This document shows, piece by piece, positions 1-16,015 of a stretch of 64,000 nt of DNA (positions within the stretch are counted from its first letter, which is position 1; each line of letters begins with the position of its first letter). The DNA lies in IMG/VR virus record IMGVR_UViG_3300022602_000025; one strand, written 5' to 3'. The DNA is from a virus. Lineage: Duplodnaviria > Caudoviricetes. A program made the position numbers and the translations under genes. Under the pieces are notes generated by a model. It saw nothing but the letters and a program-made list of their open reading frames with translations, did not search any database and was not told where the DNA came from.

Positions 1-175
1 GGCTTCTTCGAAGGGCCGAGGTAGTAGAAGGTAAACGGGTTCAACTCCCGGCCGCCCGGAAGGACGGAAGCAAACAGGTTGCTAAACTGGACTAGTATCC
101 CAAGTGACGTACCGAGTCCTAGCCGGCCTTGATAAATGGGTGAATGGTTCCTATAACGATGGTGGAACTACTGAC
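1..175 (+). ncRNA. Candidate structured ncRNA, probably truncated by the window start
   Basis: No convincing ORF. Hairpins include a T-arm-like CGGG-TTCAACT-CCCG (36-50), GGACT/AGTCC, and GTAGTAG(21-27) pairing with CTACTGAC(168-175) with one bulge. Confidence 0.4.
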
Positions 176-188
176 AAATTCAATCTAT

Positions 189-265
189 GGTGTCCATAGT
201 GTAGTGGCTCTGCATACTTGTCTGTGAAACAGGTGGTACGGGATCGTAACCCGTTGGACACCCCA
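189..265 (+). tRNA. tRNA-His(GTG) with genomically encoded G-1 and CCA
   Basis: G-1, acceptor GTGTCCA/TGGACAC, C73, anticodon loop CT-GTG-AA, 3' CCA. Confidence 0.92.
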
Positions 266-275
266 AAAGTTTATT

Positions 276-294
276 CGGAGTGTAGCGCAGTCTG
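276..294 (+). pseudogene. 5' fragment of an interrupted tRNA-Pro-like gene
   Basis: CGGAGTG-TA-GCGC-AGTCTG is a typical tRNA-Pro 5' end. CGGAGTG pairs with TACTCCG of the orphan 3' half at 844-878. Confidence 0.75.
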
Positions 295-325
295 TTTGAG
301 AATATCTCGTTTTGTACGCTAAAAG

Positions 326-332
326 ATAAATA
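326..332 (+). promoter_or_regulatory. T4-like late promoter box ATAAATA
   Basis: ATAAATA 5 nt before the HNH ATG. The same box is at 7373, 8960, 31975, 44421, 48526, 52360, 55026 and 62349. Confidence 0.65.
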
Positions 333-337
333 AGTGT

Positions 338-772
338 ATGAAACATATAGACTGTCAATACTGTAGTAAAACAACTAACACTCAAAATATTAAACGGCAC
401 GAAGATAATTGTTATCTAAATCCAATTAATATTACAGAGTGTGTTGTATGCTCAACTCCTATCAAAGACTACAAGAACTCAAAAGGTACATGTAGTCGTA
501 GTTGTGCTAATAAGCATTTTAAGAGTGGTGAAAGTAACGGTAACTGGAAAGGTGAAAAATACCAATCAATCTGTTTCTTACATCATGAAAAGAAATGTGT
601 AGTATGTGGTGAGGACAAAATTGTAGCAGTACATCATTATGATCATAACCATGAAAATAATGATCCAAACAATTTAGTTCCATTATGTCCTACACACCAT
701 AGTTATGTTCATAGTCGTTATATTGGAGAGGTACAATCTATAATAGACGATTATGTTAAAACCCGTGTGTAG
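338..772 (+). CDS. HNH homing endonuclease with Cys-rich Zn-binding N-terminus
   Basis: CxxC pairs plus CVVCG...VHHYDHNHENNDPNNLVPLCPTHH HNH motif. The stop codon overlaps the 5' end of tRNA-Pro. Confidence 0.85.
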   Translation: MKHIDCQYCSKTTNTQNIKRHEDNCYLNPINITECVVCSTPIKDYKNSKGTCSRSCANKHFKSGESNGNWKGEKYQSICFLHHEKKCVVCGEDKIVAVHHYDHNHENNDPNNLVPLCPTHHSYVHSRYIGEVQSIIDDYVKTRV

Positions 773-839
773 CTCAGCCTGGTAGAGCTCTGCGTTTGGG
801 ACGCAGTGGTCGCATGTTCAAATCGTGTCACACGGACCA
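763..839 (+). tRNA. tRNA-Pro(TGG)
   Basis: Acceptor CCGTGTG/CACACGG, anticodon arm CTGCG-TTTGGGA-CGCAG, CCA. Confidence 0.92.
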
Positions 840-843
840 ATTT

Positions 844-878
844 AGGTGTTTAAGGTTCGAATCCTTGTACTCCGACCA
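844..878 (+). pseudogene. 3' fragment (T-arm, acceptor strand, ACCA) of the interrupted tRNA
   Basis: TAAGG-TTCGAAT-CCTTG-TACTCCG-A-CCA with no D or anticodon arm upstream. Complements the 276-282 acceptor strand. Confidence 0.75.
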
Positions 879-903
879 ATTTTATTTTTTTTAGGAGATA
901 GGC

Positions 904-927
904 ATGAAACGTTCAGGTAAACGTTAG
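904..927 (+). CDS. Mini-ORF MKRSGKR (possible leader peptide)
   Basis: AGGAGA Shine-Dalgarno at 893-898, then ATG AAA CGT TCA GGT AAA CGT TAG. Confidence 0.4.
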   Translation: MKRSGKR

Positions 928-988
928 TGTCAACCTTAACCCCGTATTGGTTCTGGTTGGCACATTAAATCAATTTAATTACGACCAA

Positions 989-1064
989 CCACTTGTAGCG
1001 TTAACGGTAGCGCACTTGACTCTTAATCAATGAGGTGTCAGTTCGAATCTGACCAAGTGGACCA
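989..1064 (+). tRNA. tRNA-Lys(CTT)
   Basis: Acceptor CCACTTG/CAAGTGG, loop CT-CTT-AA, T loop TTCGAAT, CCA. Confidence 0.9.
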
Positions 1065-1068
1065 ATGC

Positions 1069-1143
1069 GGGGGTATAACTTAACGGCTAAAGTAGTAGGC
1101 TTTTAACCTATTAATCAGGGTTCGATTCCCTGTGCCCCTACCA
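1069..1143 (+). tRNA. tRNA-Lys(TTT)
   Basis: Acceptor GGGGGTA/TGCCCCT, arm GTAGG-CTTTTAA-CCTAT, CCA. Confidence 0.9.
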
Positions 1144-1147
1144 TATT

Positions 1148-1272
1148 GAATCTTTATACACATGCACACTTGGACAAGGCCTTGTCTAGTTATGGTAAAC
1201 TGCCCCGGTCATTGGCCGGAACTGGTGAAGCAGGTTCAATTCCTGCGATAGTGTGCAGTTGTATACAGATTC
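1148..1272 (+). ncRNA. Candidate structured RNA with a long closing stem and a tRNA-like T-arm
   Basis: GAATC..TATACA..TGCACACT pairs with AGTGTGCA..TGTATA..GATTC. Internal GCAGG-TTCAATT-CCTGC and CCGGTC/GGCCGG hairpins. Confidence 0.55.
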
Positions 1273-1289
1273 TTAAAAAGGAGATTGAA

Positions 1290-1655
1290 ATGAGCTTGTA
1301 CAATATGCTATTTGGTGTAAACCCAAACTCAGATCAACTTCTGGGTATCCTGGGTTATACTCGTGGAGATTGCGGTCGTTTCCGTGATGTGTATGTCGAT
1401 GATGGTTTTATCGTTATTCATACTCGTAATGGCGGCGGTAACCGTGAAGACTACGAAGATGTCTTTGACATGATGTCAGAACATCCGTGGTATGAAAAAG
1501 ACGAAGATGACAGCTTTGACTGTACCTATGCCAACATCTACTTCCGTGTTCCGGAAGACAGGATGAAAACAATGGTAGCGTTACTTGATCAAGGTCATGA
1601 CCCTGCAACCGCATGGAAAGAATTGTTCGATCACATGCGAGCAGATGCAAAATAA
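1290..1655 (+). CDS. Hypothetical protein directly upstream of rtcB
   Basis: AAGGAG SD before ATG 1290. The ORF track's extension to 1146 overlaps the structured RNA. Confidence 0.7.
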   Translation: MSLYNMLFGVNPNSDQLLGILGYTRGDCGRFRDVYVDDGFIVIHTRNGGGNREDYEDVFDMMSEHPWYEKDEDDSFDCTYANIYFRVPEDRMKTMVALLDQGHDPATAWKELFDHMRADAK

Positions 1656-1664
1656 GGATACAAA

Positions 1665-2852
1665 ATGGAAAATGTAAAGATGTGGACAGGCGATATGGTT
1701 GTAGAGCGTGAAGCTCTTGACCAAATTCGCAACATCGCTAGCTTGCCAATCTTGGCAGGACACTTAGCGATCATGCCAGACGTCCACGCTGGTATAGGTG
1801 CTACAGTTGGTTCAGTAATTCCAACTCGTGGTGCTATTATTCCTGCTGCGGTAGGAGTAGACATTGGTTGTGGGATGTGTGCTGTTATGACAAACTTAAC
1901 AGCAGAAGACTTGCCAGATAGCTTGTTTGCTATGCGAAACGACATTGAACGATCAGTTCCTGTTGGATTCTCTGAACACAAACAAAGTTCTATCAAGGTT
2001 AAAGGTCACTATGCTGATGTACTGCGTAAAGCAGAAACAAAGTTGTTTCAACGCTGGGAAAAACTAGCATTGAAAGAAAAGTTAGGTCGTGCAGACCCTT
2101 ACAAGATTGCCAACCAAATTGGTACTCTTGGAGGTGGAAATCACTTTATTGAAATCTGTTTGGACTCTGAAAACCGTGTGTGGGTAATGTTACACTCTGG
2201 TTCTCGTGGTATTGGTAACCAAATTGGTAGTGTTGCAATCAACATGGCCAAGGAAGTTGCTATCCGTGAAAACCGTAAGTTAGTAGACAGTAACTTAGCA
2301 TGGTTGGACGAAGGTTCAGCTGAATTCAATTCCTACATCGAATCTATGCACTGGGCTCAAGATTACGCTATGCTTAATCGTGAGACTATGATGCAGATTG
2401 TGTTGGAAGGTTTACGTAAGCGTTTTACTAAGATGAAAATCTTAGGAGAAGTTGTAAACTGCCATCACAACTTTACTTCGTTAGAAAACCACTTTGACGA
2501 AGATGTGTGGGTAACTCGTAAAGGTGCCGTATCAGCTCGTGAGGGCCAAATGGGCATTATACCAGGATCAATGGGTGCTAAGTCATTCATCGTGAAAGGT
2601 AAGGGGAACCACGATTCATATTGTTCATGCTCACACGGGGCTGGACGCACAATGAGCCGTACAAAAGCACGTCAGTTCTTCAGTACTGAAGATCTTGTCG
2701 CACAGACCCAAGGCGTTGAGTGTCGTAAAGACCAAGACGTCCTTGACGAGATCCCAGGTGCCTACAAGGATATCGACGCTGTTATGGCCGCACAAACTGA
2801 TTTAGTGGATGTAGTTCACACACTAAAGCAAGTCTTGTGTGTAAAAGGGTAA
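1665..2852 (+). CDS. rtcB: RtcB RNA 3'-phosphate/5'-OH ligase
   Basis: Motifs PDVHAG, GVDIGCG, GTLGGGNHFIE, HSGSRG, CHHN and CSHGAGR (guanylylated His). Confidence 0.97.
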   Translation: MENVKMWTGDMVVEREALDQIRNIASLPILAGHLAIMPDVHAGIGATVGSVIPTRGAIIPAAVGVDIGCGMCAVMTNLTAEDLPDSLFAMRNDIERSVPVGFSEHKQSSIKVKGHYADVLRKAETKLFQRWEKLALKEKLGRADPYKIANQIGTLGGGNHFIEICLDSENRVWVMLHSGSRGIGNQIGSVAINMAKEVAIRENRKLVDSNLAWLDEGSAEFNSYIESMHWAQDYAMLNRETMMQIVLEGLRKRFTKMKILGEVVNCHHNFTSLENHFDEDVWVTRKGAVSAREGQMGIIPGSMGAKSFIVKGKGNHDSYCSCSHGAGRTMSRTKARQFFSTEDLVAQTQGVECRKDQDVLDEIPGAYKDIDAVMAAQTDLVDVVHTLKQVLCVKG

Positions 2853-2892
2853 GGCAAGGAACTCGTTTAGTGGGGTGTACGTAACACTCCAC

Positions 2893-2964
2893 ACCATATA
2901 CAAGCACATTGTTCGGCATGCTGGGCCCTAGGTATAACCTCCAGTCAGTGTGCTTATATATGGT
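2893..2964 (+). ncRNA. Long-stem element of the AAGCACATT/AGTGTGCTT family
   Basis: ACCATATACAAGCACATT pairs with AGTGTGCTTATATATGGT around a 36-nt insert with its own hairpins. Confidence 0.5.
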
Positions 2965-2992
2965 TGACAAAACCAAAAAGAGACAGTATAAT
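2964..2992 (+). promoter_or_regulatory. sigma70-type promoter
   Basis: TTGACA-17 nt-TATAAT. A near-identical copy lies at 5311-5339. Confidence 0.85.
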
Positions 2993-3016
2993 ATATACTG
3001 TTCTTTAAAAAATTGT

Positions 3017-3182
3017 CATTACTTGAAAACATTAGTAGGTATCGTGTATGGACGCATACACTAGGCGGGCTGGTCGGGCCATCGATCAGTCCTGAGAAAA
3101 CTAGGGCAATGGCTTAGGACTTCGTCGCGGAAGACTCCAAAATTCGCTTAACCTATAGGGTTATTAGTGTTTTCAATTAATG
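3017..3182 (+). ncRNA. Candidate multibranch ncRNA transcribed from the 2964 promoter
   Basis: TTGAAAACATTA/TAGTGTTTTCAA closing stem. Internal GTGTATG/CATACAC, GCTGGTCG/CGATCAGT and GTCCTGAG/CTTAGGAC helices. No ORF. Confidence 0.55.
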
Positions 3183-3256
3183 GTAATGTAGCATAATGGT
3201 AGTGCACCTCCTTCATACGGAGCCCAGTGAAAGTTCGACTCTTTCCATTACCACCA
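3182..3256 (+). tRNA. tRNA with CAT anticodon (elongator Met or Ile2)
   Basis: Acceptor GGTAATG/CATTACC, loop TT-CAT-AC, CCA. G1-C72 is paired, so not the initiator. Confidence 0.85.
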
Positions 3257-3262
3257 AACAAT

Positions 3263-3338
3263 GCGGATGTAGTTCAGTTGGTAGAATACATGCTTGCCAA
3301 GCACGAGGTCACGGGTTCGAACCCCGTCATCCGCTCCA
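3263..3338 (+). tRNA. tRNA-Gly(GCC)
   Basis: GCGGATG/CATCCGC, loop TT-GCC-AA, U73-CCA. Confidence 0.92.
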
Positions 3339-3344
3339 AATAAG

Positions 3345-3373
3345 TTGACTACAGCCTATAATGGCTGTATCAT
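3345..3373 (+). promoter_or_regulatory. sigma70-type promoter (leaderless gene follows)
   Basis: TTGACT-17-TATCAT, ATG after a 6-nt gap. Confidence 0.6.
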
Positions 3374-3379
3374 GGTTGA

Positions 3380-3991
3380 ATGAGAATTAGTAAATCAGAA
3401 ATTTTTCCAACTACGATTGTATCAGTAGATGTATCAGATTTTATCACTAAACAGGATCAACAGGATCTTATACGTGAGATTGATGCTATGTGTCAAAAAC
3501 CTGAGCTGTTACATCTAAATGATTTAGCACCTTTAGTACAGTCTAAACCATTTGTGTTTGGACATGATCAAAGTGCTGTGTGGTTAAAGTTGCGTAGGTC
3601 ATTCCAAATGGCTTGTGAAGCATACGTAAAGAATACTGCACAGTTTGTTACTAATCAGGAAGAATTATTTTTTACTACATGCAGAGCATGGTTTTATAAA
3701 AGCAATTCAGATGATCAGAAGAAGAGTGGTCAGCCTTGGCATAATCATAATCCATCATTTCTAAGTGGTGCGTTTTATTTGAAGATCCCAAGTGATGCTG
3801 AACCTGCAGGAACTGAGTTTTTAGATCCTAGGCATCCTTCTGCTCATAGAAATAAAACATATGAAATTGTTCCGTTAGAATTAACGTGGACAATATTCCC
3901 AGGATGGTTGAATCATCGTGCTGGTGTAATTACATCTAAAGATTATAGATACGTAATTGCCGCAGACAGCTACGTTGGTTTAGGAAGTTAA
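3380..3991 (+). CDS. 2OG-Fe(II) oxygenase (TIGR02466-like)
   Basis: HNH..SFLSGAFYL...GTEFLDPR...IFPGWLNHR pattern. Confidence 0.8.
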   Translation: MRISKSEIFPTTIVSVDVSDFITKQDQQDLIREIDAMCQKPELLHLNDLAPLVQSKPFVFGHDQSAVWLKLRRSFQMACEAYVKNTAQFVTNQEELFFTTCRAWFYKSNSDDQKKSGQPWHNHNPSFLSGAFYLKIPSDAEPAGTEFLDPRHPSAHRNKTYEIVPLELTWTIFPGWLNHRAGVITSKDYRYVIAADSYVGLGS

Positions 3992-3994
3992 TAT

Positions 3995-4070
3995 GCACGG
4001 TTCGTCTATCGGTTTAGGACACTGGCCTTTCACGTCAGTAAGACGGGTTCGATTCCCGTACCGTGTACCA
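3995..4070 (+). tRNA. tRNA-Glu(TTC)
   Basis: GCACGGT/ACCGTGT, arm CTGGC-CTTTCAC-GTCAG, CCA. Confidence 0.92.
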
Positions 4071-4076
4071 AGTTAT

Positions 4077-4167
4077 GGAAGAGCAAGCCAATTGGTGATG
4101 GCAGCTGTCTTGAAAACAGTCGAGCGTTAATAGCGCCTTGAGGGTTCAACTCCGTCCTCTTCCGCCA
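4077..4167 (+). tRNA. tRNA-Ser(TGA)
   Basis: GGAAGAG/CTCTTCC, loop CT-TGA-AA, long variable arm, G73-CCA. Confidence 0.92.
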
Positions 4168-4185
4168 AACATTAAGGAGAGCTGT

Positions 4186-4329
4186 ATGAACAAGCAAGAC
4201 GAAACGATTGCCAAAGCATACGGCAACATACCTAAGGAAGTTGGATACACTATTGATTTTTCATTTATTCCAACATGGAGAGGAATTAAGTACTACTGGT
4301 ATAAAGTAGTACGAAAAGTAACAAGATAA
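4186..4329 (+). CDS. Small hypothetical protein
   Basis: AAGGAG SD before ATG 4186. The track's upstream extension lies within tRNA-Ser. Confidence 0.6.
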   Translation: MNKQDETIAKAYGNIPKEVGYTIDFSFIPTWRGIKYYWYKVVRKVTR

Positions 4330-4337
4330 AGAATTAC

Positions 4338-4432
4338 GGAGAGTTGGGTGAGCTGGCTGAAACCACCTTCCTGCTAAGAAGACATACGGGCCAAAACCTG
4401 TATCGAGGGTTCGAATCCCTCACTCTCCGCCA
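4338..4432 (+). tRNA. tRNA-Ser(GCT)
   Basis: GGAGAGT/ACTCTCC, loop CT-GCT-AA, long variable arm, GCCA. Confidence 0.92.
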
Positions 4433-4440
4433 AAGTTTTA

Positions 4441-4554
4441 TGCTTGCTGAGTAGCTACACTGGAACACCGAAAAACTTGCCAAAGTCGACCAAAGCAAGG
4501 ACCGGCCAGGAAGAGAAGGGCTATCGTGGATTCAAGCGCCACAGCGAGCACCCA
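4441..4554 (+). ncRNA. Atypical 114-nt tRNA-like RNA (8-bp acceptor, T-arm, CCA, no normal anticodon arm)
   Basis: TGCTTGCT/AGCGAGCA + C + CCA. T-arm GTGGA-TTCAAGC-GCCAC. CTTGC/GCAAG stem with a 14-nt loop. Confidence 0.55.
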
Positions 4555-4558
4555 ATAT

Positions 4559-4638
4559 GGAACGGTGGCAGAGCATGGTCCAATGCAATCGCCTGCAAAG
4601 CGATAAAACCGTAGGTTCAAATCCTACCCGTTCCTCCA
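4559..4638 (+). tRNA. tRNA-Cys(GCA)
   Basis: GGAACGG/CCGTTCC, arm ATCGC-CTGCAAA-GCGAT, U73-CCA. Confidence 0.92.
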
Positions 4639-4640
4639 GT

Positions 4641-4779
4641 TTTGCTTATGTGCGTACGGTAACCCATATGTGATTAGCGAGTCGACCAAGACACTTGTTA
4701 ATGTACCTGATGTCCGTAGCAGGCTTGGCTACATGCCGGGCTCCGCACACGACTTGGAAATTGTGTAACGGTAAGCAAA
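4641..4779 (+). ncRNA. Candidate structured ncRNA between tRNA-Cys and tRNA-Trp
   Basis: TTTGCTTA/TAAGCAAA closing stem, GTGCG/CGCAC, GTAGC/GCTAC and ACACGA/TTGTGT helices. Confidence 0.45.
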
Positions 4780-4790
4780 TTCATTTTTAT

Positions 4791-4864
4791 GTCTCGGTAG
4801 TATAATGGCAGTACTGCGGTCTCCAAAACCGTTAGTGGGAGTTCGAGTCTCTCCCGGGACGCCA
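4791..4864 (+). tRNA. tRNA-Trp(CCA)
   Basis: GTCTCGG/CCGGGAC, loop CT-CCA-AA, GCCA. Confidence 0.92.
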
Positions 4865-4869
4865 AGTTT

Positions 4870-4968
4870 GCCCCTGTAGCTTAATGGTAAAGAAACGAGC
4901 TTATACCTCGTCATAGCACCGTCTAGATAAGGCGGAGTGTGGGGGTTCGAGTCCCTCCAGGGGCACCA
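4870..4968 (+). tRNA. tRNA with TAT anticodon (Ile AUA) and a 29-nt variable region
   Basis: GCCCCTG/CAGGGGC, arm ACGAG-CTTATAC-CTCGT, variable hairpin CCGTCT/AGGCGG, A73-CCA. Confidence 0.75.
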
Positions 4969-4970
4969 TT

Positions 4971-5045
4971 CGGGCTTTGGTGAAATGGATATCATTGCGG
5001 TCTTCGAAACCGTTGGTGTAGGTTCGATTCCTACAGGCCCGGCCA
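4971..5045 (+). tRNA. tRNA-Arg(TCG)
   Basis: CGGGCTT/AGGCCCG, loop CT-TCG-AA, GCCA. Confidence 0.9.
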
Positions 5046-5059
5046 AAGTTAAATTTAAT

Positions 5060-5134
5060 ACCCCTGTAGTATAATGGATAATACACTGGTCTACGAAGCC
5101 GGGGATTGTGGTTCGATTCCATACAGGGGTGCCA
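5060..5134 (+). tRNA. tRNA-Arg(ACG)
   Basis: ACCCCTG/CAGGGGT, loop CT-ACG-AA, GCCA. Confidence 0.9.
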
Positions 5135-5139
5135 TACAT

Positions 5140-5214
5140 GCGGCTATAGTATAACGGATAATGCAACGGTCTTCTACACCGTGAATGTGGGTTCGATTCC
5201 TGCTAGCCGCGCCA
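5140..5214 (+). tRNA. tRNA-Arg(TCT)
   Basis: GCGGCTA/TAGCCGC, arm ACGGT-CTTCTAC-ACCGT, GCCA. Confidence 0.9.
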
Positions 5215-5225
5215 AACAAAAGTAT

Positions 5226-5303
5226 GCCCCTATGGACAAATTGGTAAAGTCGGCTCTCTCAAAAGGAGCAGTTTTCTCTGTTCGAATCAGAGTAGGGGTA
5301 CCA
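5226..5303 (+). tRNA. tRNA-Leu(CAA) lacking the long variable arm
   Basis: GCCCCTA/TAGGGGT, Leu-type D loop AAATTGGTAAA, loop CT-CAA-AA, only about 6 nt variable region, A73-CCA. Confidence 0.8.
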
Positions 5304-5310
5304 AAACTAG

Positions 5311-5339
5311 TTGACAAAACCAAATAGAGACAGTATAAT
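5311..5339 (+). promoter_or_regulatory. sigma70-type promoter (leaderless gene follows)
   Basis: TTGACA-17-TATAAT, ATG after a 6-nt gap. Confidence 0.85.
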
Positions 5340-5345
5340 AATTGC

Positions 5346-5561
5346 ATGTATAAAGTTAATTGGAATGCTAGCGGTGTCGCTAGTGAGAAAGAAGTAGAGA
5401 ATTTGGATTCAGCGATGAGTTTCGCTAAAGAATTAAACTGTTTGGTTACTATAACAGGTAACGGAATGGAAATCGTTGGACTGTTTGGTTCGGACTCTGT
5501 CAAAGATGGCAAGTGTCCAGACGGTACTGACTACACTTGGATGAAGAGGAGAACCCAATGA
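5346..5561 (+). CDS. Hypothetical protein
   Basis: ORF starting at the predicted TSS, overlapping the next gene. Confidence 0.65.
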   Translation: MYKVNWNASGVASEKEVENLDSAMSFAKELNCLVTITGNGMEIVGLFGSDSVKDGKCPDGTDYTWMKRRTQ

Positions 5562-5866
5562 GCGGCGGACATTTCGACTATAAGCAATATAAAATTGGCT
5601 ACATCGCAGACGAAGTAGAGCAATTAATCATAGACAATGATAGTGATGAACGCAATGAGTGGGGTGACGTTAAAGGTTATCATTTTACGCCAGAAACTAT
5701 TGAGGAATTCAAAAAAGGGCTTACAATACTAAGGCAAGCACACATATACGCACAGCGTATTGATTGGTTGGTTAGTGGCGATGACGGCGAGGATAGTTTT
5801 CATAGACGTTTGAAACAAGAGTTGGAGAATTTAAATGCCGTGGATACAAAATATAGCGTTAGCTGA
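5558..5866 (+). CDS. Hypothetical protein
   Basis: GAGGAG SD before ATG 5558 (MSGGHFDY...). Confidence 0.65.
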   Translation: MSGGHFDYKQYKIGYIADEVEQLIIDNDSDERNEWGDVKGYHFTPETIEEFKKGLTILRQAHIYAQRIDWLVSGDDGEDSFHRRLKQELENLNAVDTKYSVS

Positions 5867-6326
5867 TGTAGGCAAAGGCCATCATTTTGATGCCGGCTTT
5901 AATTCTATGCTGATCCAGATTGTGGATCCTGCGATGGCATTTCCTACTCCAAAGCACCAGTTTAAAGAAGTACATCAATTTGAGTTCTTAGATCTTGAGC
6001 GAGATGATCCTTGGGGCGAAGAATTTAAAATTACGGACGAACAAGCAGAAAAATTAGTTCAATTGCTACAACATGCTCTTGACAATCATATGCAAGTCGT
6101 AGTACACTGCGTTGCTGGAGTATGCAGATCAGGAGCAGTTTGCGAAGTAGGTGTGATGATGGGCTTTGATGATACGGAAGTTTTCCGTAGTCCTAATCTG
6201 CTTGTAAAGCACAAGATGATGAAAGCACTTGGTTGGACATATGACGAAAACGAACCTCATACTATAAATGGTATAGAGCTAGATTCTGGATTGATCGTTC
6301 CAAAAAATTACGAAGGTGATATATGA
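5835..6326 (+). CDS. Dual-specificity/PTP-like phosphatase
   Basis: Catalytic loop VVVHCVAGVCRSG (HCxxGxxRS). Confidence 0.8.
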   Translation: MPWIQNIALADVGKGHHFDAGFNSMLIQIVDPAMAFPTPKHQFKEVHQFEFLDLERDDPWGEEFKITDEQAEKLVQLLQHALDNHMQVVVHCVAGVCRSGAVCEVGVMMGFDDTEVFRSPNLLVKHKMMKALGWTYDENEPHTINGIELDSGLIVPKNYEGDI

Positions 6327-6688
6327 CAGCGATAGTTGAAGTACGTAACAGTACAACAGTAATGAACAAGGTCTACGATGATCGTGGTCGTGTTGCTGTT
6401 CTATATTCACCCGATTATGGCGCAGGTTGGTTTACTTGGAATACAGAGTATCCTGAGATGCTATATGACCCAACCATCGTACATATTGTTCTTCAAGACC
6501 TCGACCCAAAAGAGAAAACTGAAAGAATCGTAGTATATGCAACACTTAGATATCCAGATGCTTATTTGGGCGGAGCGGGTGATCTTACTGTTGAGTGGAT
6601 ACCGGAAGGCACTTTGTTTAGAGTTACTGAATATGACGGTAATGAAGGCATAGAGCTTAAAGAATCAGATCAGTGGTTCGTAGCGTAA
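6323..6688 (+). CDS. Hypothetical protein
   Basis: Translationally coupled ORF (ATGA overlap). Confidence 0.65.
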   Translation: MTAIVEVRNSTTVMNKVYDDRGRVAVLYSPDYGAGWFTWNTEYPEMLYDPTIVHIVLQDLDPKEKTERIVVYATLRYPDAYLGGAGDLTVEWIPEGTLFRVTEYDGNEGIELKESDQWFVA

Positions 6689-6693
6689 TTATT

Positions 6694-6778
6694 GCGACTG
6701 TGATGAAATTGGTATACATGACAGACTTAAAATCTGTTGCCGCAAGGCATGGCGGTTCAAGTCCGCCCAGTCGCACCA
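6694..6778 (+). tRNA. tRNA-Leu(TAA)
   Basis: GCGACTG/CAGTCGC, arm ACAGA-CTTAAAA-TCTGT, variable arm, ACCA. Confidence 0.92.
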
Positions 6779-6782
6779 AAAC

Positions 6783-6979
6783 CCGGGTTACACTTTGTAC
6801 TGTTAATTAAAGTGGGTAATTGCCAAACCATAAGAGCACGGTGCATTGGATCTACCGTAAGGCCCAGGTAGGGCGACTTAAGAAATCACAAAGGCGAGAA
6901 CACTAGTCGTCTAGATAGAAACAACGTGTGGACAGGGTAACAACTCAGTCCGGGGCTTATGTGGTGTAAGTAGCCGGAC
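6783..6979 (+). ncRNA. Candidate ~200-nt structured ncRNA
   Basis: ORF-free. GTTACACTTT/AAAGTGGGTAAT 5' hairpin, CTACC/GGTAG, and a GTCCGG..CCGGAC 3' hairpin. Confidence 0.45.
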
Positions 6980-7060
6980 ACTTTATTAAAGCACATTAGG
7001 CGACATCCGAGTATTCTGGAATAGTAAGGTGGCATAGCCCCTAGTGTGCTTCAATAAAGT
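6980..7060 (+). ncRNA. Long-stem element of the AAGCACATT/AGTGTGCTT family
   Basis: ACTTTATTAAAGCACATT pairs with AGTGTGCTTCAATAAAGT around a 45-nt insert. Confidence 0.5.
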
Positions 7061-7141
7061 ACGTTTAACTTAAATATAATTTAGGTAGTAAGGACAGGGC
7101 ACCACTGTTATGAAAAGCCATAGATGTACTTTAAAAAATAT

Positions 7142-7217
7142 GCGGGTGAAGTGTTTGTGGTTACACGTCAGTCTTCCAAACTGAAATAGACGAGTTCAAC
7201 TCTCGCCTCCCGCTCCA
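7142..7217 (+). tRNA. tRNA-Gly(TCC)
   Basis: GCGGGTG/CTCCCGC, arm TCAGT-CTTCCAA-ACTGA, U73-CCA. Confidence 0.9.
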
Positions 7218-7271
7218 AACTCTCCCTTACACACGGAGTATAATAGGATAAGTTGTGTGTAACAGATCAAT

Positions 7272-7345
7272 CGCGGGATGGAGAAAAGGCATCTCATGAG
7301 TCTCATAAGCTCAGGTTCTTGGTTCGAGTCCAGGTCCCGCAACCA
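7272..7345 (+). tRNA. Initiator-type tRNA-fMet(CAT)
   Basis: C1.A72 mismatch (CGCGGGA/TCCCGCA), loop CT-CAT-AA, CCA. The anticodon stem lacks the usual three G-C pairs. Confidence 0.75.
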
Positions 7346-7384
7346 TTTCAATGCAATTTTAACAACAGACGGATAAATAATTAT

Positions 7385-7837
7385 ATGCTAACATTTATCA
7401 CAGATCTTGCAAGCCCACTGCTACAGTTCATCAAGGATGACCCAGTGCGTCCTGAGATTCCTGTTGACTTCCGTGTTAGCGAAAATCGTTTTGTTTCTAG
7501 TATTGTCGAAGGCGAAGATCCTAAGGCAATCGTTTGTGTAGCACTACAGGACTTTGTTCCTTCAAGTGTAGCTGAACTAGCACAAGAAACATTTGCACCA
7601 AATACAGCGATTTTCTATACTATCTGGAGTTACGCACCTGGTGCAGGTAAAGAACTTCTTCTTCAAACTGTTGATCGTATCCGCGAACAATTTCCAACCG
7701 TTACACGCTTTGTTACGCTAAGTCCAAAGAGTGAAATGGCCAAACGTTTCCACTTAAAAAATGGCGCAGAAATCTTCCGCGAAAACGATGATACAGTTAA
7801 TTATGAATACAAAATACTTGACTTCGCTCAAGATTAA
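7385..7837 (+). CDS. Hypothetical protein, possible GNAT-like fold
   Basis: ATAAATA box 5 nt upstream of the ATG. AIFYTIWSYAPGAGKELL...A.RFHLKNG resembles GNAT motifs A/B (weak). Confidence 0.55.
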   Translation: MLTFITDLASPLLQFIKDDPVRPEIPVDFRVSENRFVSSIVEGEDPKAIVCVALQDFVPSSVAELAQETFAPNTAIFYTIWSYAPGAGKELLLQTVDRIREQFPTVTRFVTLSPKSEMAKRFHLKNGAEIFRENDDTVNYEYKILDFAQD

Positions 7838-7846
7838 TTGTACAAT
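7818..7846 (+). promoter_or_regulatory. sigma70-type promoter
   Basis: TTGACT-17-TACAAT. Confidence 0.7.
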
Positions 7847-7860
7847 ATTACATAAGGTTT

Positions 7861-8128
7861 GAAAATCAAGTTCGCTTGGTTTTCCGGTAGGGTAAAACAG
7901 AGATGAGAGATAGCGCCACAGTTAACGACTACAAATCGTTTACTGAACTATTGGCCTTGACAGCCTCCGTAACTTAGTGACCCAGGGTAAATTTGCTTAA
8001 TCGCTATGTCATTTGCTCCTTGGAAATGTTAAGTTCTCTGTTATTTGTTACTTGTAAGTGAAGGTTAGTCACCTGAACAAATTGTCTTTTGCATTTTGTC
8101 CAGCTATTCACTTGCTGTTTTACCAACC
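7861..8128 (+). ncRNA. Candidate ~270-nt structured leader or ncRNA
   Basis: 10-bp UUCG hairpin (7861-7884), long-range GGTAGGGTAAAACAG/CTGTTTTACCAACC pairing (7886-7900/8115-8128), ATAGCG/CGCTAT and CAGT-AACGA/TCGTT-ACTG helices. Confidence 0.6.
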
Positions 8129-8155
8129 GTTTTTACAATTTAAAAAGGATTTAAA

Positions 8156-8731
8156 ATGAAAATTTCTCTTCGCAAGGCATCTGTAGTACAACAAAACATC
8201 CAACAACTGTTGAAGTCTGTTGAGGTTGCAACTACTGTAAAGTTTAACGAATTTGAAGAAACTGCAGACGTTTTGGCTAAGGCTACAGAAGCTCTGTATG
8301 CCGCAGACAACCGCCGTGCCCAATTGCTTGCAGCCTTGTACGCTGTACGCAAACTAGTAGCTCGTGCAAACGTTGAGACAGAAATCAGCGATCGTTTGGC
8401 TAGCTGTGCATTTATCGACAAGCGTTTGAGCCAGCTTGCTCCGCTTACAGAAAAGACAGCTCTGCAGGAACCTGCCGCTGTTGTTGCAGGTAAGCTAGAC
8501 AAGATTCGCAACGACAAGGGCGAAAGCCGTCGTAGTATCTACGGATACGATGACACAGTTAGCTCTGGCATTTTGCTAGCTACCCAAATTGAAGGTTTCC
8601 AAAGTGAAGTACTAGAACTTAAGAAATCTAAACAAAAGCTCAACGATGAAATTTTGGAACTCAATGTCCGTACAGAGATTGAAATTCCAGAAGATATCGA
8701 AGAAATTCTGCTTAAGGAACATTTGGTTTAA
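8156..8731 (+). CDS. Helical/coiled-coil hypothetical protein
   Basis: 191-aa ORF with AAGGA SD and heptad-like Leu/Lys/Glu-rich segments. Confidence 0.75.
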   Translation: MKISLRKASVVQQNIQQLLKSVEVATTVKFNEFEETADVLAKATEALYAADNRRAQLLAALYAVRKLVARANVETEISDRLASCAFIDKRLSQLAPLTEKTALQEPAAVVAGKLDKIRNDKGESRRSIYGYDDTVSSGILLATQIEGFQSEVLELKKSKQKLNDEILELNVRTEIEIPEDIEEILLKEHLV

Positions 8732-8738
8732 AAAGAAA

Positions 8739-8767
8739 TTGCTCACTAGGTTACAATTATGTATAAT
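8739..8767 (+). promoter_or_regulatory. sigma70-type promoter for the atypical tRNA
   Basis: TTGCTC-17-TATAAT, 6 nt before the RNA 5' end. Confidence 0.55.
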
Positions 8768-8773
8768 TACATA

Positions 8774-8875
8774 GTGGCTGTGAGCAAATATGGCAAAGCT
8801 CTCCCCCTTTTGGGTCGAGGTCGGGCAACGTTCTAAACAACGCCCATGGAGGTTCAAGCCCTCCCAGCCACACCA
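8774..8875 (+). tRNA. Leu-type tRNA scaffold with an aberrant anticodon arm (undetermined anticodon)
   Basis: GTGGCTG/CAGCCAC, A73-CCA, D arm AGC-AAATATGGCAAA-GCT, T arm GGAGG-TTCAAGC-CCTCC, long variable arm GGGC/GCCC. No canonical 5-bp/7-nt anticodon arm. Confidence 0.6.
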
Positions 8876-8882
8876 GATTTAA

Positions 8883-8956
8883 GCCCTGTTCGTATAGAGG
8901 CATTACGCCTGATTTGTAATCAGGTTACGGCAGTTCGATTCTGTCACGGGGCACCA
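8883..8956 (+). tRNA. tRNA-Thr(TGT)
   Basis: GCCCTGT/ACGGGGC, arm CCTGA-TTTGTAA-TCAGG, CCA. Confidence 0.92.
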
Positions 8957-9024
8957 GAGATAAATAATTGTAGCAGTGCCCGAGTGGGGCTGCTACAATT
9001 CTTGCTTAACAAAGGAGAAAAATA

Positions 9025-10950
9025 ATGAGCAAAATCATCGGTATCGACTTAGGTACAACTAATAGCTGCGTAGCTATCATCGAGAACGGAACTTCCAAAG
9101 TAATTGAAAATTCAGAAGGCGCAAGAACAACGCCCTCAATCGTCGCCTATATGGATGACGGTGAAGTAATCATTGGAGCACCTGCAAAACGCCAGGCCGT
9201 TACAAATCCAAAAAATACAATCTATGCCGCCAAGCGTTTAATTGGTCGTAGATTTTCAGAAGATGCTGTACAAAAAGACATTGACCTAATGCCTTACAAA
9301 ATCGTAGCGGCAGACAATGGTGACGCATGGGTAGAAGTGCGTGACGACAAACTAGCACCTCCACAAATTAGTGCTGAAGTTCTTCGCAAGATGAAGAAGA
9401 CCGCAGAAGACTATTTGGGTGAACCAGTAACACAGGCTGTTATTACAGTACCAGCTTACTTCAATGACTCACAACGTCAAGCAACTAAAGATGCAGGTAA
9501 GATCGCAGGTTTAGAAGTTCTGCGTATTATCAACGAGCCAACAGCGGCTGCACTAGCGTATGGTGTTGACAAACAGGATAAAGCAGATCGCAAGATTGCA
9601 GTTTACGACTTGGGTGGTGGTACATTTGACGTATCTATCATTGAAATCGCAAACGTAGATGGCGACAAACAAATTGAAGTTCTTTCAACTAACGGAGATA
9701 CATTCCTAGGTGGTGAAGACTTTGACCAACGTATTATGGATCACATTATCGCAGAATTCAAGAAAGAATCTGGTGTTGATCTAAGCAAGGATGTACTTGC
9801 ACTACAGCGTCTAAAAGATGCGGCTGAAAAGGCTAAGATTGAGTTGTCTAGCTCAATGCAAACAGAAGTTAACTTGCCTTACATTACAGCAGATGCAAGC
9901 GGTCCAAAACATTTGAATATTAAAATCACTCGTAGCAAGTTTGAAAATCTTGTTGAAGAATTGATTGAGCGTAGTTTGGTTCCATGCCGTACAGCTCTAG
10001 CAGATGCTAAAGTTAGTGCTAGCGACATTGACGAAGTTATCCTAGTCGGTGGACAAACACGTATGCCTAAAGTACAAGAAGCAGTTGAGAAACTGTTTGG
10101 CAAGGCTCCACGTAAAGACGTTAACCCAGACGAAGCTGTTGCTGTTGGTGCGGCTATCCAAGGACAAGTTTTAGGTGGTGATCGTACAGACGTTCTATTG
10201 CTAGACGTTACTCCACTAAGCCTAGGTATTGAAACTTCAGGCGGTGTGATGGCTAAGGTTGTAACTAAGAATACAACTATTCCTAGCAAGAAAACAGAAA
10301 TGTTCTCAACAGCAGAAGACAACCAACCTGCCGTAACACTAAAAGTTTACCAAGGTGAGCGTGAAGTTGCTAAACACAACAAACTGTTGGGCGAGTTTAA
10401 TCTAGATGGTATTATGCCAGCACGTAGAGGTGAGCCTCAAATTGAAGTAACCTTTGATATTGATGCTAACGGTATTCTTAAAGTAAGTGCTACAGATAAG
10501 AAAACTGGTAAGGAAAACAACATCACGATTAAAGCCAACTCTGGTCTAAGTGATGATGAAATCCAACAAATGATCAAAGATGCAGAAGCTAACGCTGAAG
10601 CAGATGCTAAGGCTGTTGCTGTTGTTAAACAACGTAACCAAACTGAAGCGTTCACTGGAATCATTCGTGAGCATCGTGCAAAACACGGCGATACAGCTCT
10701 AACAGACGAAGAACGTACTTTGTTTGATGAATGTATGGCTAAGCTAGACGAAGCTGACAAGGGCGACGACGTTGAAGCTATGCAAACAGCATTTAACGAA
10801 GTGTTTGACAAGTGTTCTAAGATTATTGAAAAGCTACAACAAGCTGACGATGATGCAAGAGCTCGTGAAAAGGCAGCTGAGGAAGAAGCTAAGAAAGCCG
10901 CTGAAGCAGCGACTGCAGAAGCGACAGACAAACCGGCTGATGCTGAGTAA
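9025..10950 (+). CDS. dnaK: Hsp70 chaperone DnaK
   Basis: [37 protein letters not shown] and [11 protein letters not shown] motifs. Confidence 0.99.
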
Positions 10951-10954
10951 AACA

Positions 10955-10982
10955 AAATGGGCTAGCAATAGTCCATTTTTTT
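10955..10982 (+). terminator. Intrinsic terminator after dnaK
   Basis: AAAATGGGCT/AGTCCATTTT hairpin followed by a T-tract. Confidence 0.7.
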
Positions 10983-10985
10983 CCA

Positions 10986-11144
10986 ATGAGAAGTATTTGG
11001 CGAATATGGGCTAAAGCCCTAGGTGAAAAAAGTGGCAAAACTGACAAAGAAGCGGACTTGATTGCTATCGTCAGAAGTGCTATAATATTAATATACGTAG
11101 TAACAAATTTCTTTATCATTGCCGGTGTTATACGGCATTGGTAA
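10986..11144 (+). CDS. Small membrane protein (52 aa, MRSIWRIWAKALGEK...NFFIIAGVIRHW)
   Basis: Manually translated, below the track cutoff. One hydrophobic helix. Confidence 0.55.
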   Translation: MRSIWRIWAKALGEKSGKTDKEADLIAIVRSAIILIYVVTNFFIIAGVIRHW

Positions 11145-11178
11145 GTAAGTTTATACAGAAGTGATGTAAAGGTTTAAT

Positions 11179-11263
11179 GCCCCTTTGGCGAAATTGGTAG
11201 ACGCGCCAGATTTAGGTTCTGGTATCTTCGGGTGTGAGAGTTCGAGTCTCTTGGGGGGCACCA
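11179..11263 (+). tRNA. tRNA-Leu(TAG)
   Basis: GCCCCTT/GGGGGGC, arm CCAGA-TTTAGGT-TCTGG, variable arm, ACCA. Confidence 0.92.
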
Positions 11264-14063: not shown

Positions 14064-14984
14064 ATGCACATCCAAAAGTTTTTAGAACAAGACGTTAGTA
14101 AGCAACTTGAAAAGGCCTGTATCTGGGGCTTGCGGCTACATTATTTGGCCAGCGACTTGAGGACGTTTGCTAACGAAATTGGTGCTAAGGATTTGGAAAC
14201 ACTTGAGCAATACCATTGGTTCAATCAGCATTTTGGTCCAGGGTTTGGCGCAGGTCAGGGCTATCGTACCGCCTCAAACGAAAACTACAATAACCTAGGT
14301 TACTGTATCCGCGAAACACAAAGTAACGTTCTTAACACGACTGAAAAGAAAGGCAACTTGGGTGCTGACCTTGTAACAGGTTTTGCACTCGGTCATATGC
14401 TGGCAACAGGTCGTGCGGGTCTTACTACAGATGATTTCCATACTAAAGAAGGCGGCTTCCATTGTGAGCATAACTTCCAGGTAAACCATATCAAGAAATT
14501 GCTATTGGAAAAATTGCTTACTAAAAATAAGATTGATCCAAAAAGCCTTGTCCGCTTTGTTATTGACCATAGTCTTGTTGTTACTGTTCATAATAGTGAA
14601 CGCAAGGACGGCGGGTCTAATATGAACAAAAACATCGCTCCGTTTTGGCGATATGCCAATGTAGGTGCAAACGTACTACAATATACTGACGATGGTTTTG
14701 AAGACGTTACCAACGCCACTATCAATGAAATTAATTCCAACCGTTGGAATCGCAATAAATATTTTAAAGAGTTCCGTAACTCTTTTGAAAGTATTGCACA
14801 GGATACCATTGATCAATTCCGTAATGAAGTGTATAATAGCACTTATATGAAGGAACCTTGTAGTTCTACTTCACCCATTTTAAATGAGGCGAATTTGAAA
14901 TTGTTGGTTAAGAATGATCCTGCGGCAATCGCTAAGGCATTCTACCCAGACAAATTTAAAGATAGATGGAAAAAAGGCAAATGA
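14064..14984 (+). CDS. Hypothetical protein (possible His-Me nuclease remnant, FHCEHNF)
   Basis: 306-aa ORF with SD. The motif similarity is weak. Confidence 0.6.
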   Translation: MHIQKFLEQDVSKQLEKACIWGLRLHYLASDLRTFANEIGAKDLETLEQYHWFNQHFGPGFGAGQGYRTASNENYNNLGYCIRETQSNVLNTTEKKGNLGADLVTGFALGHMLATGRAGLTTDDFHTKEGGFHCEHNFQVNHIKKLLLEKLLTKNKIDPKSLVRFVIDHSLVVTVHNSERKDGGSNMNKNIAPFWRYANVGANVLQYTDDGFEDVTNATINEINSNRWNRNKYFKEFRNSFESIAQDTIDQFRNEVYNSTYMKEPCSSTSPILNEANLKLLVKNDPAAIAKAFYPDKFKDRWKKGK

Positions 14985-16015
14985 ACAATTATACATGGCA
15001 ACAATGGGATATCAATCACTTTAGGACTCTAAGTCCACTACACACAGATCCAACTAAAGAACTCATACATAATCGTATGGGTCGCCTTTATTGGGTCACC
15101 GCAGGCGATGCACTTTATGTACAACGCTTCGCAAGAGAAAATGGTCCGTATCAAGGACGCAATTTAAAATTTCTAAGAACTGTTGTACCAAACGCTCAAA
15201 CTATTATTGACGTTGGAATGAATGTAGCAAACAATACGATGGAGTATGCTACCTGGGCACAGGACGTACATGGCTTTGAGCCGTTTCCTGAAACCTATCA
15301 ACTGGCAACAGAAACAATCACACTTAATCAACACGTTGAACTCAAAGGTCGTTATTGGGATACTAGAGCCGTTAAGACAGTCCATAATCCTAATCACGAT
15401 GACGGCTGGTTTAAAAAGCCAGATGGAACTTTCGCTAGTCTTGCACTCACAGGCAACATCCATACTTACAATGTAGGATTGGGCGAAGTGCCTGGATCCT
15501 TCCAGATGGAACATCATCCTAACAATGCAGGTCACAACTGTATCCTTACAGAAGGTCGTAAAGATAAAACAAACTATGCTCTGCATACTGTTACAGTTAA
15601 TACGTTAGATTCTTATAACTTTGAAAATGTAGACATTATTAAAGTAGACGTTGAAGGTTATGAGTTTCCTGTACTCAAAGGCGGAGAGCAGACTATTCGC
15701 CGTTGCCGTCCTGTCGTACAACTTGAAATGGTAGAAGCACAGGCTAAGAAATTTGGTTATACTCCGCAAGACATCGCAGACTTTTTTATTAACAAGATTG
15801 GCAACTACAGCATCTATACATTCAAAGGTGAGAAACTTCCAGATACTTGGGCCAAGGTCAAAGGCATTATGGATTATTTCTTTGTGCCTAATGAACGTGC
15901 AGGTAACATTGTTGTAGACAAAGCGACAACACATCCAGGTATGGGCGAAGGCGGTTTTGGAAAACGTCATCAAACTACACCACTACTTAACCCAGAAATA
16001 TTTGTTGAGGAATAA
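14981..16015 (+). CDS. FkbM-family SAM-dependent methyltransferase
   Basis: IIDVGMNVA, VHGFEPF and DIIKVDVEGYEFPVLKG motifs. Confidence 0.88.
   Translation: MNNYTWQQWDINHFRTLSPLHTDPTKELIHNRMGRLYWVTAGDALYVQRFARENGPYQGRNLKFLRTVVPNAQTIIDVGMNVANNTMEYATWAQDVHGFEPFPETYQLATETITLNQHVELKGRYWDTRAVKTVHNPNHDDGWFKKPDGTFASLALTGNIHTYNVGLGEVPGSFQMEHHPNNAGHNCILTEGRKDKTNYALHTVTVNTLDSYNFENVDIIKVDVEGYEFPVLKGGEQTIRRCRPVVQLEMVEAQAKKFGYTPQDIADFFINKIGNYSIYTFKGEKLPDTWAKVKGIMDYFFVPNERAGNIVVDKATTHPGMGEGGFGKRHQTTPLLNPEIFVEE

Follow-up and report, generated by a model that had tools for sequence, protein, structure and literature searches.

Arrays of transfer RNA (tRNA) genes in phages are usually read as a supply of tRNAs serving codon usage or anti-defence, and the DNA between the tRNAs is overlooked. 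Here we analyse four closing stems, named E1 to E4, in the tRNA array at the start of a 64-kb stretch of viral DNA (Duplodnaviria; Caudoviricetes; IMG/VR record IMGVR_UViG_3300022602_000025), which is referred to below as the window. The inter-tRNA DNA here belongs to a large, ordered family of small-RNA cassettes, each an enclosed sequence (the cargo) on one conserved helix that is locked to tRNA ends.

Several described systems resemble these cassettes in part. Non-tRNA RNA is released by tRNA processing in mitochondrial tRNA punctuation, in the tRNA-microRNA units of murine gammaherpesvirus 68 (MHV68) and in engineered tRNA-guide RNA (tRNA-gRNA) arrays. By analogy, RNase P and the tRNA 3'-end enzymes would set the ends of the cassette RNAs; such systems lack both a closing helix that is conserved and pairing of the CCA end, to which the phage cassettes add a constant double-stranded handle. 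RNase III stalks, such as the stems of 16S and 23S rRNA and the early-RNA sites of phage T7, likewise consist of a long helix flanking a stable RNA in a polycistronic transcript, with a likely role in excision and end protection. The cassette helix, which spans approximately 18–22 bp (about two turns of double-stranded RNA, dsRNA) with no more than one mismatch and lies between tRNAs or genes of the same strand, has the predicted properties of such a stalk and would fit RNase III. The cassettes differ in that they reuse one helix for at least 70 cargos, keep it in register with the tRNA CCA and pair it to the CCA, and in that no phage RNase III gene is present in the complete carriers. The species 1 and 2 RNAs of phage T4 (rnaC and rnaD) are small stable RNAs of unknown function in a phage tRNA cluster, and rnaC has a T-arm, but the AGUGU helix is absent from them and our covariance model (R2, below) finds nothing in the T4 genome. 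They were rejected as relatives, being analogues in position only, without the shared stem. The Y RNA YrlA (RF02553; PMC4201824) has a sequence-conserved terminal stem and a variable module able to mimic the tRNA elbow, and it lies beside rtcB in Salmonella, as E1 does here. The cassettes differ from YrlA in having no Rfam match, no GNCGAAN0-1G motif and no Ro60/TROVE gene in relatives, in that most cargos are not tRNA-like, and in that their position is tied to tRNA ends.

Four closing stems in a phage tRNA array

The window starts with an array of 20–21 tRNAs, all on the + strand, at 190–11263 (ARAGORN, Rfam). E1 to E4 lie inside it on the same strand. An earlier note on this DNA had pointed to four inverted repeats, all of which were found where it had placed them, on the + strand; each is the inner portion of a longer closing stem:

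E1, 1148–1272, + strand: extended stem; 5' arm 1148–1170 (GAAUCU.UAUACA..UGCACACU), cargo 1171–1249 (79 nt), 3' arm 1250–1272; inner pairs GCACACT 1164–1170 / AGTGTGC 1250–1256
E2, 2893–2964, + strand: canonical; 5' arm ACCA+UAUACAAGCACAUU 2893–2910, cargo 2911–2946 (36 nt), 3' arm AGUGUGCUUAUAUA+UGGU 2947–2964; inner pairs AAGCACATT 2902–2910 / AGTGTGCTT 2947–2955
E3, 3016–3183, + strand: 5' arm 3016–3033 (..UUGAAAACAUU), multi-hairpin cargo 3034–3165 (132 nt), 3' arm 3166–3183; inner pairs AAAACATT 3026–3033 / AGTGTTTT 3166–3173
E4, 6980–7060, + strand: canonical; 5' arm ACUU+UAUUAAAGCACAUU 6980–6997, cargo 6998–7042 (45 nt), 3' arm AGUGUGCUUCAAUA+AAGU 7043–7060; inner pairs AAGCACATT 6989–6997 / AGTGTGCTT 7043–7051

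All four stems close in minimum-free-energy folds, with z scores against dinucleotide shuffles of −5.0 (E1, −50.5 kcal/mol), −3.9 (E2), −4.9 (E3, −60 kcal/mol) and −4.3 (E4). The motif ACAYT...AGTGT with at least three further pairs occurs seven times on the + strand of the window. Four of these are E1 to E4; the other three have short extensions of 3–4 bp, one lying in the tRNA cluster and two within coding DNA.

One helix encloses unrelated cargos at some 80 viral loci

The contigs that encode the closest RtcB proteins (79–82% identity, L001–L007) also have rtcB inside tRNA arrays, and each carries several nearly identical stems around unrelated inserts. When IMG/VR was scanned for exact matches to the inner 9 bp, its strands separated by 30–60 nt, at least 90 loci were obtained, 66 of which carry elements, and nearly all of the matches listed extend to the same helix of 16–20 bp, with the consensus (U)ACCAUAUUGAAGCACAUU ... 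AGUGUGCUUCAAUAUGGU(A). The copies gathered number at least 118 (at least 103 non-redundant) at approximately 80 viral loci, and their cargos, of 22–213 nt (median ~48 nt), fall into at least 70 mutually unrelated classes. That a single helix is kept in sequence and in pairing around so many unrelated cargos bears out two claims of the earlier note, namely that the stems are not a local duplication and that they form a shared handle. The AGTGT strand that it took to be shared is indeed common in the family, but it is not universal: members found with the model carry AAUGU, AGUUU or AGUAU together with compensating partners.

A covariance model, R2, was built from 46 non-redundant viral copies, none of them from the window. 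Over the 64 kb of the window its sole significant matches are E4 (55.8 bits, E 2.8e-10) and E2 (49.2 bits, E 9.4e-09, the + strand outscoring the − strand). On sequence grounds, E2 and E4 clearly belong to a large family of modular small-RNA cassettes found in tRNA operons of freshwater phages that are uncultivated and for the most part large. The window itself originates from lake water, judged by its sequencing runs, and has no near relative among 50,697 deposited phage genomes (INPHARED).

The family helix measures approximately 14–18 bp, (ACCA)UAUUGAAGCACAUU / AGUGUGCUUCAAUA(UGGU), with a core of 14 bp, UAUUGAAGCACAUU / AGUGUGCUUCAAUA. Counted outward from the cargo in the 46-copy alignment, pairing is 84–100% at positions −16 to −1. 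Two to six pair types occur at each position from −18 to −10, examples being UUGAAG/CUUCAA, UAAAAG/CUUUUA, AGUGAAG/CUUCACU and UCGAAG/CUUCGA, compensatory changes of the kind that the earlier note had proposed to look for. E4 has ACUU/AAGU in place of ACCA/UGGU, a double compensatory change, and an A.C mismatch at −10; the single mismatch of the E2 helix, C.A, is at the same position. Individual helices run to 18–22 bp with at most one 1x1 mismatch. Lineages have arm variants of their own, and every copy within a genome carries the same one, such as GUACAUU in L001, L004 and L009.

The mismatches are strand-specific, with 62 G.U against 12 A.C in the same alignment; read on the complementary strand, the conserved U.G is an A.C mismatch. 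The covariance-model score of the + strand exceeds that of the − strand by 7–22 bits. Judged from this G.U bias and the drop in score on the other strand, the selected object is an RNA helix on the tRNA strand.

The family looks viral from the genomes searched: in 596 Gb of bacterial and archaeal genomes the 20-nt pattern was found at only 15 places, one of them with an extended stem, outside a tRNA context. Rfam gave nothing above chance on E1 to E4, at gathering thresholds or at E ≤ 5/10 (for example mir-208, E 0.36), BLASTN of the four elements against 80 rtcB loci found no homologues of the cargo sequences, and element queries of INPHARED returned tRNA matches or nothing. R2 is without matches in T4, Acinetobacter phage Acj61, Pseudomonas phage PS119XW and Yersinia phage fHe-Yen9-04. 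No description of the cassette family was found in the literature on phage tRNA-cluster RNAs and trailer hairpins; it is apparently undescribed and is absent from Rfam 15. A group of 13 contigs with a 51-nt cargo (the L081 group) was set aside as not secure members, having 11-bp stems in a repressor-type prophage context with no tRNAs.

The helix is in register with tRNA ends

Element loci carry 890 tRNAs on the strand of the element and 58 on the opposite strand, and in whole records, four of them complete or near-complete, model matches are limited to one short tRNA-array region per genome. Most copies lie between tRNAs of one operon with linkers of 0–8 nt. ARAGORN called a tRNA no more than 60 nt upstream in 31 cases, and in 23 of them exactly 14 nt separate its CCA end from the cargo; on the other side, the commonest distance from the cargo to the start of the downstream tRNA is 15 nt. 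CCA occupies −17 to −15 in 48 of 103 copies and UGG stands opposite in 44 of these 48, which indicates that the tRNA CCA is paired into the helix. At the discriminator base (−18) pairing still amounts to 73%, and at −19, the position at which the acceptor stem sets in, it has dropped to background. That stem is marked in 29 of 47 CCA-type copies by a 7-bp helix that spans a tRNA-sized distance and has its end exactly at −19. A few CCA-type copies have a short minihelix at −19 in place of the acceptor stem, and E2 is of this kind. In a subtype found in L007, L086 and L089, the helix is 21 bp long (20–21 bp); an unpaired CCA directly precedes it, and a single nucleotide separates it from the next tRNA. 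The fixed register is compatible with release of small RNAs from the tRNA transcript, as the earlier note had supposed.

In the window, E1 follows a tRNA-Lys CCA, E2 keeps the 14-nt register after a minihelix and ACCA, and the 3' arm of E3 extends into the first bases of tRNA-Met (3182). The features beside these three elements are as follows:

1069–1143, + strand: tRNA-Lys(UUU) (ARAGORN; Rfam 67 bits), encoded CCA 1141–1143, with E1 directly after
1290–1655, + strand: orf121, without a Pfam family; a neighbour of the cassettes, not part of the family
1665–2852, + strand: rtcB (Pfam RtcB, 5.8e-128); likewise a neighbour only
2870–2892, + strand: minihelix before E2, 9 bp, followed by ACCA 2893–2896; fold −14 kcal/mol, z −4.5
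2964–2992, + strand: sigma-70-type promoter TTGACA-17-TATAAT, 12/12 match, beginning at the last base of E2

Three of the four stems thus flank rtcB, as previously noted, E1 upstream of orf121-rtcB and E2 and E3 downstream. The minihelix and ACCA sit after the rtcB stop codon, and the 14-nt arm of E2 begins at 2897. The 3' strand of the minihelix ends exactly at −19, as do the tRNA acceptor stems counted above, and from this placement the minihelix is read as an acceptor-stem-like stand-in for an upstream tRNA. The promoter directly after E2 is so placed that the following transcript has E3 at its 5' end. An identical TTGACA-17-TATAAT promoter is found at 5311–5339, the two lying in a near-identical repeat of approximately 30 nt (TTGACAAAACCAAAnAGAGACAGTATAATA), and each ends a tRNA/cassette run.

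E1 and E3 are probably divergent members, as far as their sequences tell. E1 retains GCACACU/AGUGUGC beside the cargo, and UAUUGAA (1144–1150), which makes up the first 7 nt after the tRNA-Lys CCA, equals the family consensus, with an extra helical segment between the two. E1 also occupies the slot behind tRNA-Lys(UUU) in which L005, L007, L086 and L089 have canonical copies. E3 retains UUGAA..ACAUU / AGUGU..UUCAA. Both have in common with the family the inner helix, an outer part of the form UUGAA/UUC(A)A and a place beside tRNAs, and both are among the top non-member + strand matches of R2 in 12 kb. Their long cargos are penalised by R2: with filters off E1 scores 10.7 bits (E 1.3) and E3 8.3 bits (E 4.6), while another model, R1, gives E3 11.8 bits (E 0.64), and chance-level matches score alike.

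Some cargos mimic the tRNA elbow

Several cargo classes recur across contigs with compensatory changes in their hairpins, for example a 51-nt class. A two-hairpin class related to E2 is found with such changes in L007, L086, L089 and L159, the alignment of the E2 cargo itself to this class being uncertain. A minority of cargos contain a T-arm (GGUUCRAnnCC), far more often than shuffled cargos do, and some of these have a D-arm-like hairpin too, the anticodon arm being absent. The T-arm always lies 2–4 nt before the 3' arm, so that it would stack on the conserved helix as on an acceptor stem. By these predicted folds some cargos mimic the tRNA elbow. E1 falls in the T-arm group: its cargo is tRNA-like, with a T-arm at 1230–1246 (GCAGG UUCAAUU CCUGC) 3 nt before AGUGU and a weak tRNA-Sec-like alignment. 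Antisense matches of the four window cargos within the window did not exceed those of shuffled controls.

Other tRNA-derived or tRNA-like RNAs were seen outside the family. At 852–878 of the window, after tRNA-Pro, there is an orphan T-arm with the 3' half of an acceptor ending in CCGACCAA, which looks like a truncated tRNA remnant. Phage fHe-Yen9-04 (L196) has annotated pseudo- or undetermined tRNAs of 114–126 nt at 14794–14907, 15617–15742 and 16627–16747, with normal acceptor, D and T arms, a hairpin insert in place of the anticodon arm and no family stem.

A proposed handle for releasing small RNAs

Taken together, the membership of the family, its conservation and covariation, its strandedness and its register with tRNAs lead us to favour, at slightly better than even, a reading in which the helix serves as a handle for cutting and stabilisation, through which host tRNA- or dsRNA-processing enzymes set small RNAs free from tRNA transcripts, with the cargos then acting as free small RNAs. 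We infer the cleavages, the enzymes and the action of the free cargos as follows. A cassette fills the spacer between two tRNAs as an interchangeable folded cargo inside a constant helix. In the commonest form the 5' arm comes right after the CCA of the upstream tRNA, and the 3' arm continues as UGG(N), pairing with the CCA and the discriminator base and abutting or overlapping the 5' end of the next tRNA. The RNase P cut at the downstream tRNA would make the 3' end of the cassette. Its 5' end would be the 3' end of the previous tRNA, where a host endonuclease of the RNase III type or the RNase Z/BN type would cut CCA|U; since this junction is buried in a helix that exonucleases cannot remove, an endonuclease would have to act there. 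The cut would free the CCA end of the tRNA and release a near-blunt hairpin whose 14-bp stem shields the cargo from exonucleases.

One and the same helix sequence is kept over at least 70 paralogous cargos, which points to a single factor that recognises all of the cassettes. RNase III sites of Escherichia coli have base-pair and sequence preferences (PMC6212723), and a sequence-conserved stem is therefore compatible with a nuclease site.

RNA-library contigs bear on this to some extent. Nineteen lake metatranscriptome runs hold parts of 1100–3400, and in four of them orf121-rtcB is covered. Contigs start at 1280–1283 in two runs, 8–11 nt past E1, and end at 2859–2862 in three runs, 8–11 nt before the minihelix, while one contig goes on to 2994, through E2. 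These edges beside the cassettes are a weak hint of processing; the data are assembled contigs that may include DNA, and small RNAs are not covered. They contain no joints or back-splice-like records, and as they leave the tRNAs and elements uncovered they are silent on small-RNA ends and circles.

A number of observations weigh against the processing handle. The 14-nt register holds in only 23 of 31 cases, the 20–21 bp subtype leaves the CCA before its helix unpaired, and CCA is missing from −17 to −15 in about half of the copies. E1 and E3 fall below significance with the family model. Most copies come from a pattern that fixes the inner 9 bp, and the invariance there is partly due to ascertainment. 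A stable helix abutting the CCA might just as well impede tRNA maturation as assist it. With regard to proteins, any one family is found in at most 12 of 78 element loci, neither of the RNase III domains nor the dsRNA-binding domain (dsRBD) is present in the complete carriers, and a search of five related viral records, of which two are complete, gave no match to TROVE (Ro60). The absence of RNase III domains and dsRBD implies that the nuclease or binder would be a host factor or an unrecognised phage protein.

The commonest linked family is PF04308 (YkuK-type, RNase H-like), whose genes encode 156–166 aa and lie in or beside the tRNA arrays of 12 element loci:

PF04308 loci: L003, L005, L082, L091, L092, L102, L120, L122, L139, L145, L150, L177

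The product is a possible tRNA-array nuclease; the gene is absent from the window and from the complete carriers G005 and G008.

Alternatively, and with clearly lower probability, the helix may be the handle of a dedicated factor. The cassettes would then form a modular ribonucleoprotein (RNP) system with dozens of interchangeable cargos, tRNA-elbow mimics and other small folds alike, presented on one scaffold as decoys, guides or tethers, and pairing of the CCA would couple activation of the tRNA to cleavage of the cassette. If a specific factor is bound, this would be a new phage RNP system. If instead the helix is a processing handle, the cassettes would be a natural counterpart of engineered tRNA-scaffold RNA expression and would be a sign of many phage small RNAs not yet characterised, tRNA mimics among them. 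The consensus, the model and the register define the family well enough for direct testing.

Other explanations

The stems might be pure punctuation, that is, sites for host RNase III or a similar enzyme that separate tRNAs and mRNAs, with the cargos as functionless filler or decayed tRNA remnants. This would account for the length of the helix with its single 1x1 mismatch at most, for the exact filling of inter-tRNA spacers by helix and cargo, for cargos in which only a T-arm is left and for the failure to find a linked protein. It is nevertheless unlikely, since cargo classes are kept between contigs with compensatory hairpin changes and the cargos are compactly structured, when a spacer needs no folded insert of 22–213 nt. 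We give still less credence to a DNA-level element, in which a mobile or recombining cassette, with the arms as its inverted repeats, moves small genes between phages in the manner of PeSL-like modular shuffling and the RNA fold is incidental. Identical arms around unrelated cargos, the different cargos held by the tRNA-Lys(UUU) slot in the window, L005 and L007, and the arm variants that all copies of a genome have in common (GUACAUU, above) speak for such an element. However, the mismatches are strand-specific, the orientation is always that of the tRNAs, the helix stops exactly at the discriminator base and no linked transposase or recombinase was found at the element loci. Recombination at the arms may explain the exchange of cargos without being their function. 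A scaffold resembling Y RNAs, whose helix binds a Ro60-like or other RNA-binding protein while the cargo (tRNA-like in E1) tethers an effector, is about as improbable. The long terminal stem with a tRNA-like module recalls YrlA, as does the location of E1 directly upstream of orf121-rtcB, YrlA being part of an rsr-yrlBA-rtcBA operon (PMC4201824; PMC7790460). Against it, none of the four 5' arms contains the Rsr-binding motif GNCGAAN0-1G (PMC4201824), the five viral records mentioned above are without a TROVE match and most cargos are not tRNA-like. E1 was also rejected as a YrlA RNA: RF02553 has no match on 1130–1290 at E ≤ 10, and the only weak match in 1–9000 falls on tRNAs at 4813–4920 (E 1.9).

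The earlier note had further suggested that the small RNAs, once cut out, are possibly joined into circles by the RtcB encoded next to them. Circular RNAs are products of RtcB in archaea, and three of the four window copies flank its gene, yet the association does not extend to the family. No rtcB is present in the fetched DNA of the ~90 motif-scan loci listed, only approximately 9 of 80 viral rtcB loci carry elements, and RtcB is absent from the complete carrier genomes G007 (at least five elements) and G008. The stems are continuous helices without paired 3-nt bulges, and the bulge-helix-bulge motif is absent. The putative end chemistry is unsuitable as well: RNase P and RNase III leave 5'-phosphate and 3'-hydroxyl ends, which are not RtcB substrates. 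The proposed co-occurrence with rtcB thus failed to appear, circularisation by RtcB is very improbable, and from these gene contents and folds we conclude that the cassettes are independent of RtcB. Intrinsic terminators or attenuators, the former of which the earlier note too had judged a poor fit, deserve even less weight. E2 does end the rtcB unit just before a promoter, but no T-run follows any of the four stems, and none of nine terminator-like sites in the window coincides with a stem; most copies lie between tRNAs of one operon at the short linkers given above, and the contig that reaches 2994 reads through E2.

Other features of the array

Besides rtcB, further genes of RNA-repair flavour are interspersed in the tRNA array:

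338–772: HNH endonuclease
3380–3991: 2OG-Fe(II) oxygenase
5835–6326: DSP/PTP-type phosphatase

RNAs with long terminal stems but without the family helix are found between tRNAs at 4441–4549 (GCUUGCUG/CAGCGAGC) and 4641–4780 (UUUGCUUA/UAAGCAAA), and closing-stem RNAs in the array are thus not only of the AGUGU family. Between tRNA-Leu(UAA) and E4, positions 6779–6979 hold approximately 200 nt of structured DNA free of open reading frames (ORFs) and without an Rfam match. A tRNA-Ile(UAU)-like gene with an extra arm of ~25 nt lies at 4870–4965 (Rfam tRNA 57 bits, not called by ARAGORN); in L001 and L004 a 101-nt tRNA-Ile(tat) stands directly upstream of rtcB. The window starts inside a structured, ORF-poor stretch (1–189) with a T-arm-like hairpin (GGGUUCAACUCCC), and RNA-library contigs with a depth of ~50 match 1–109 and then diverge, probably deriving from a related phage.

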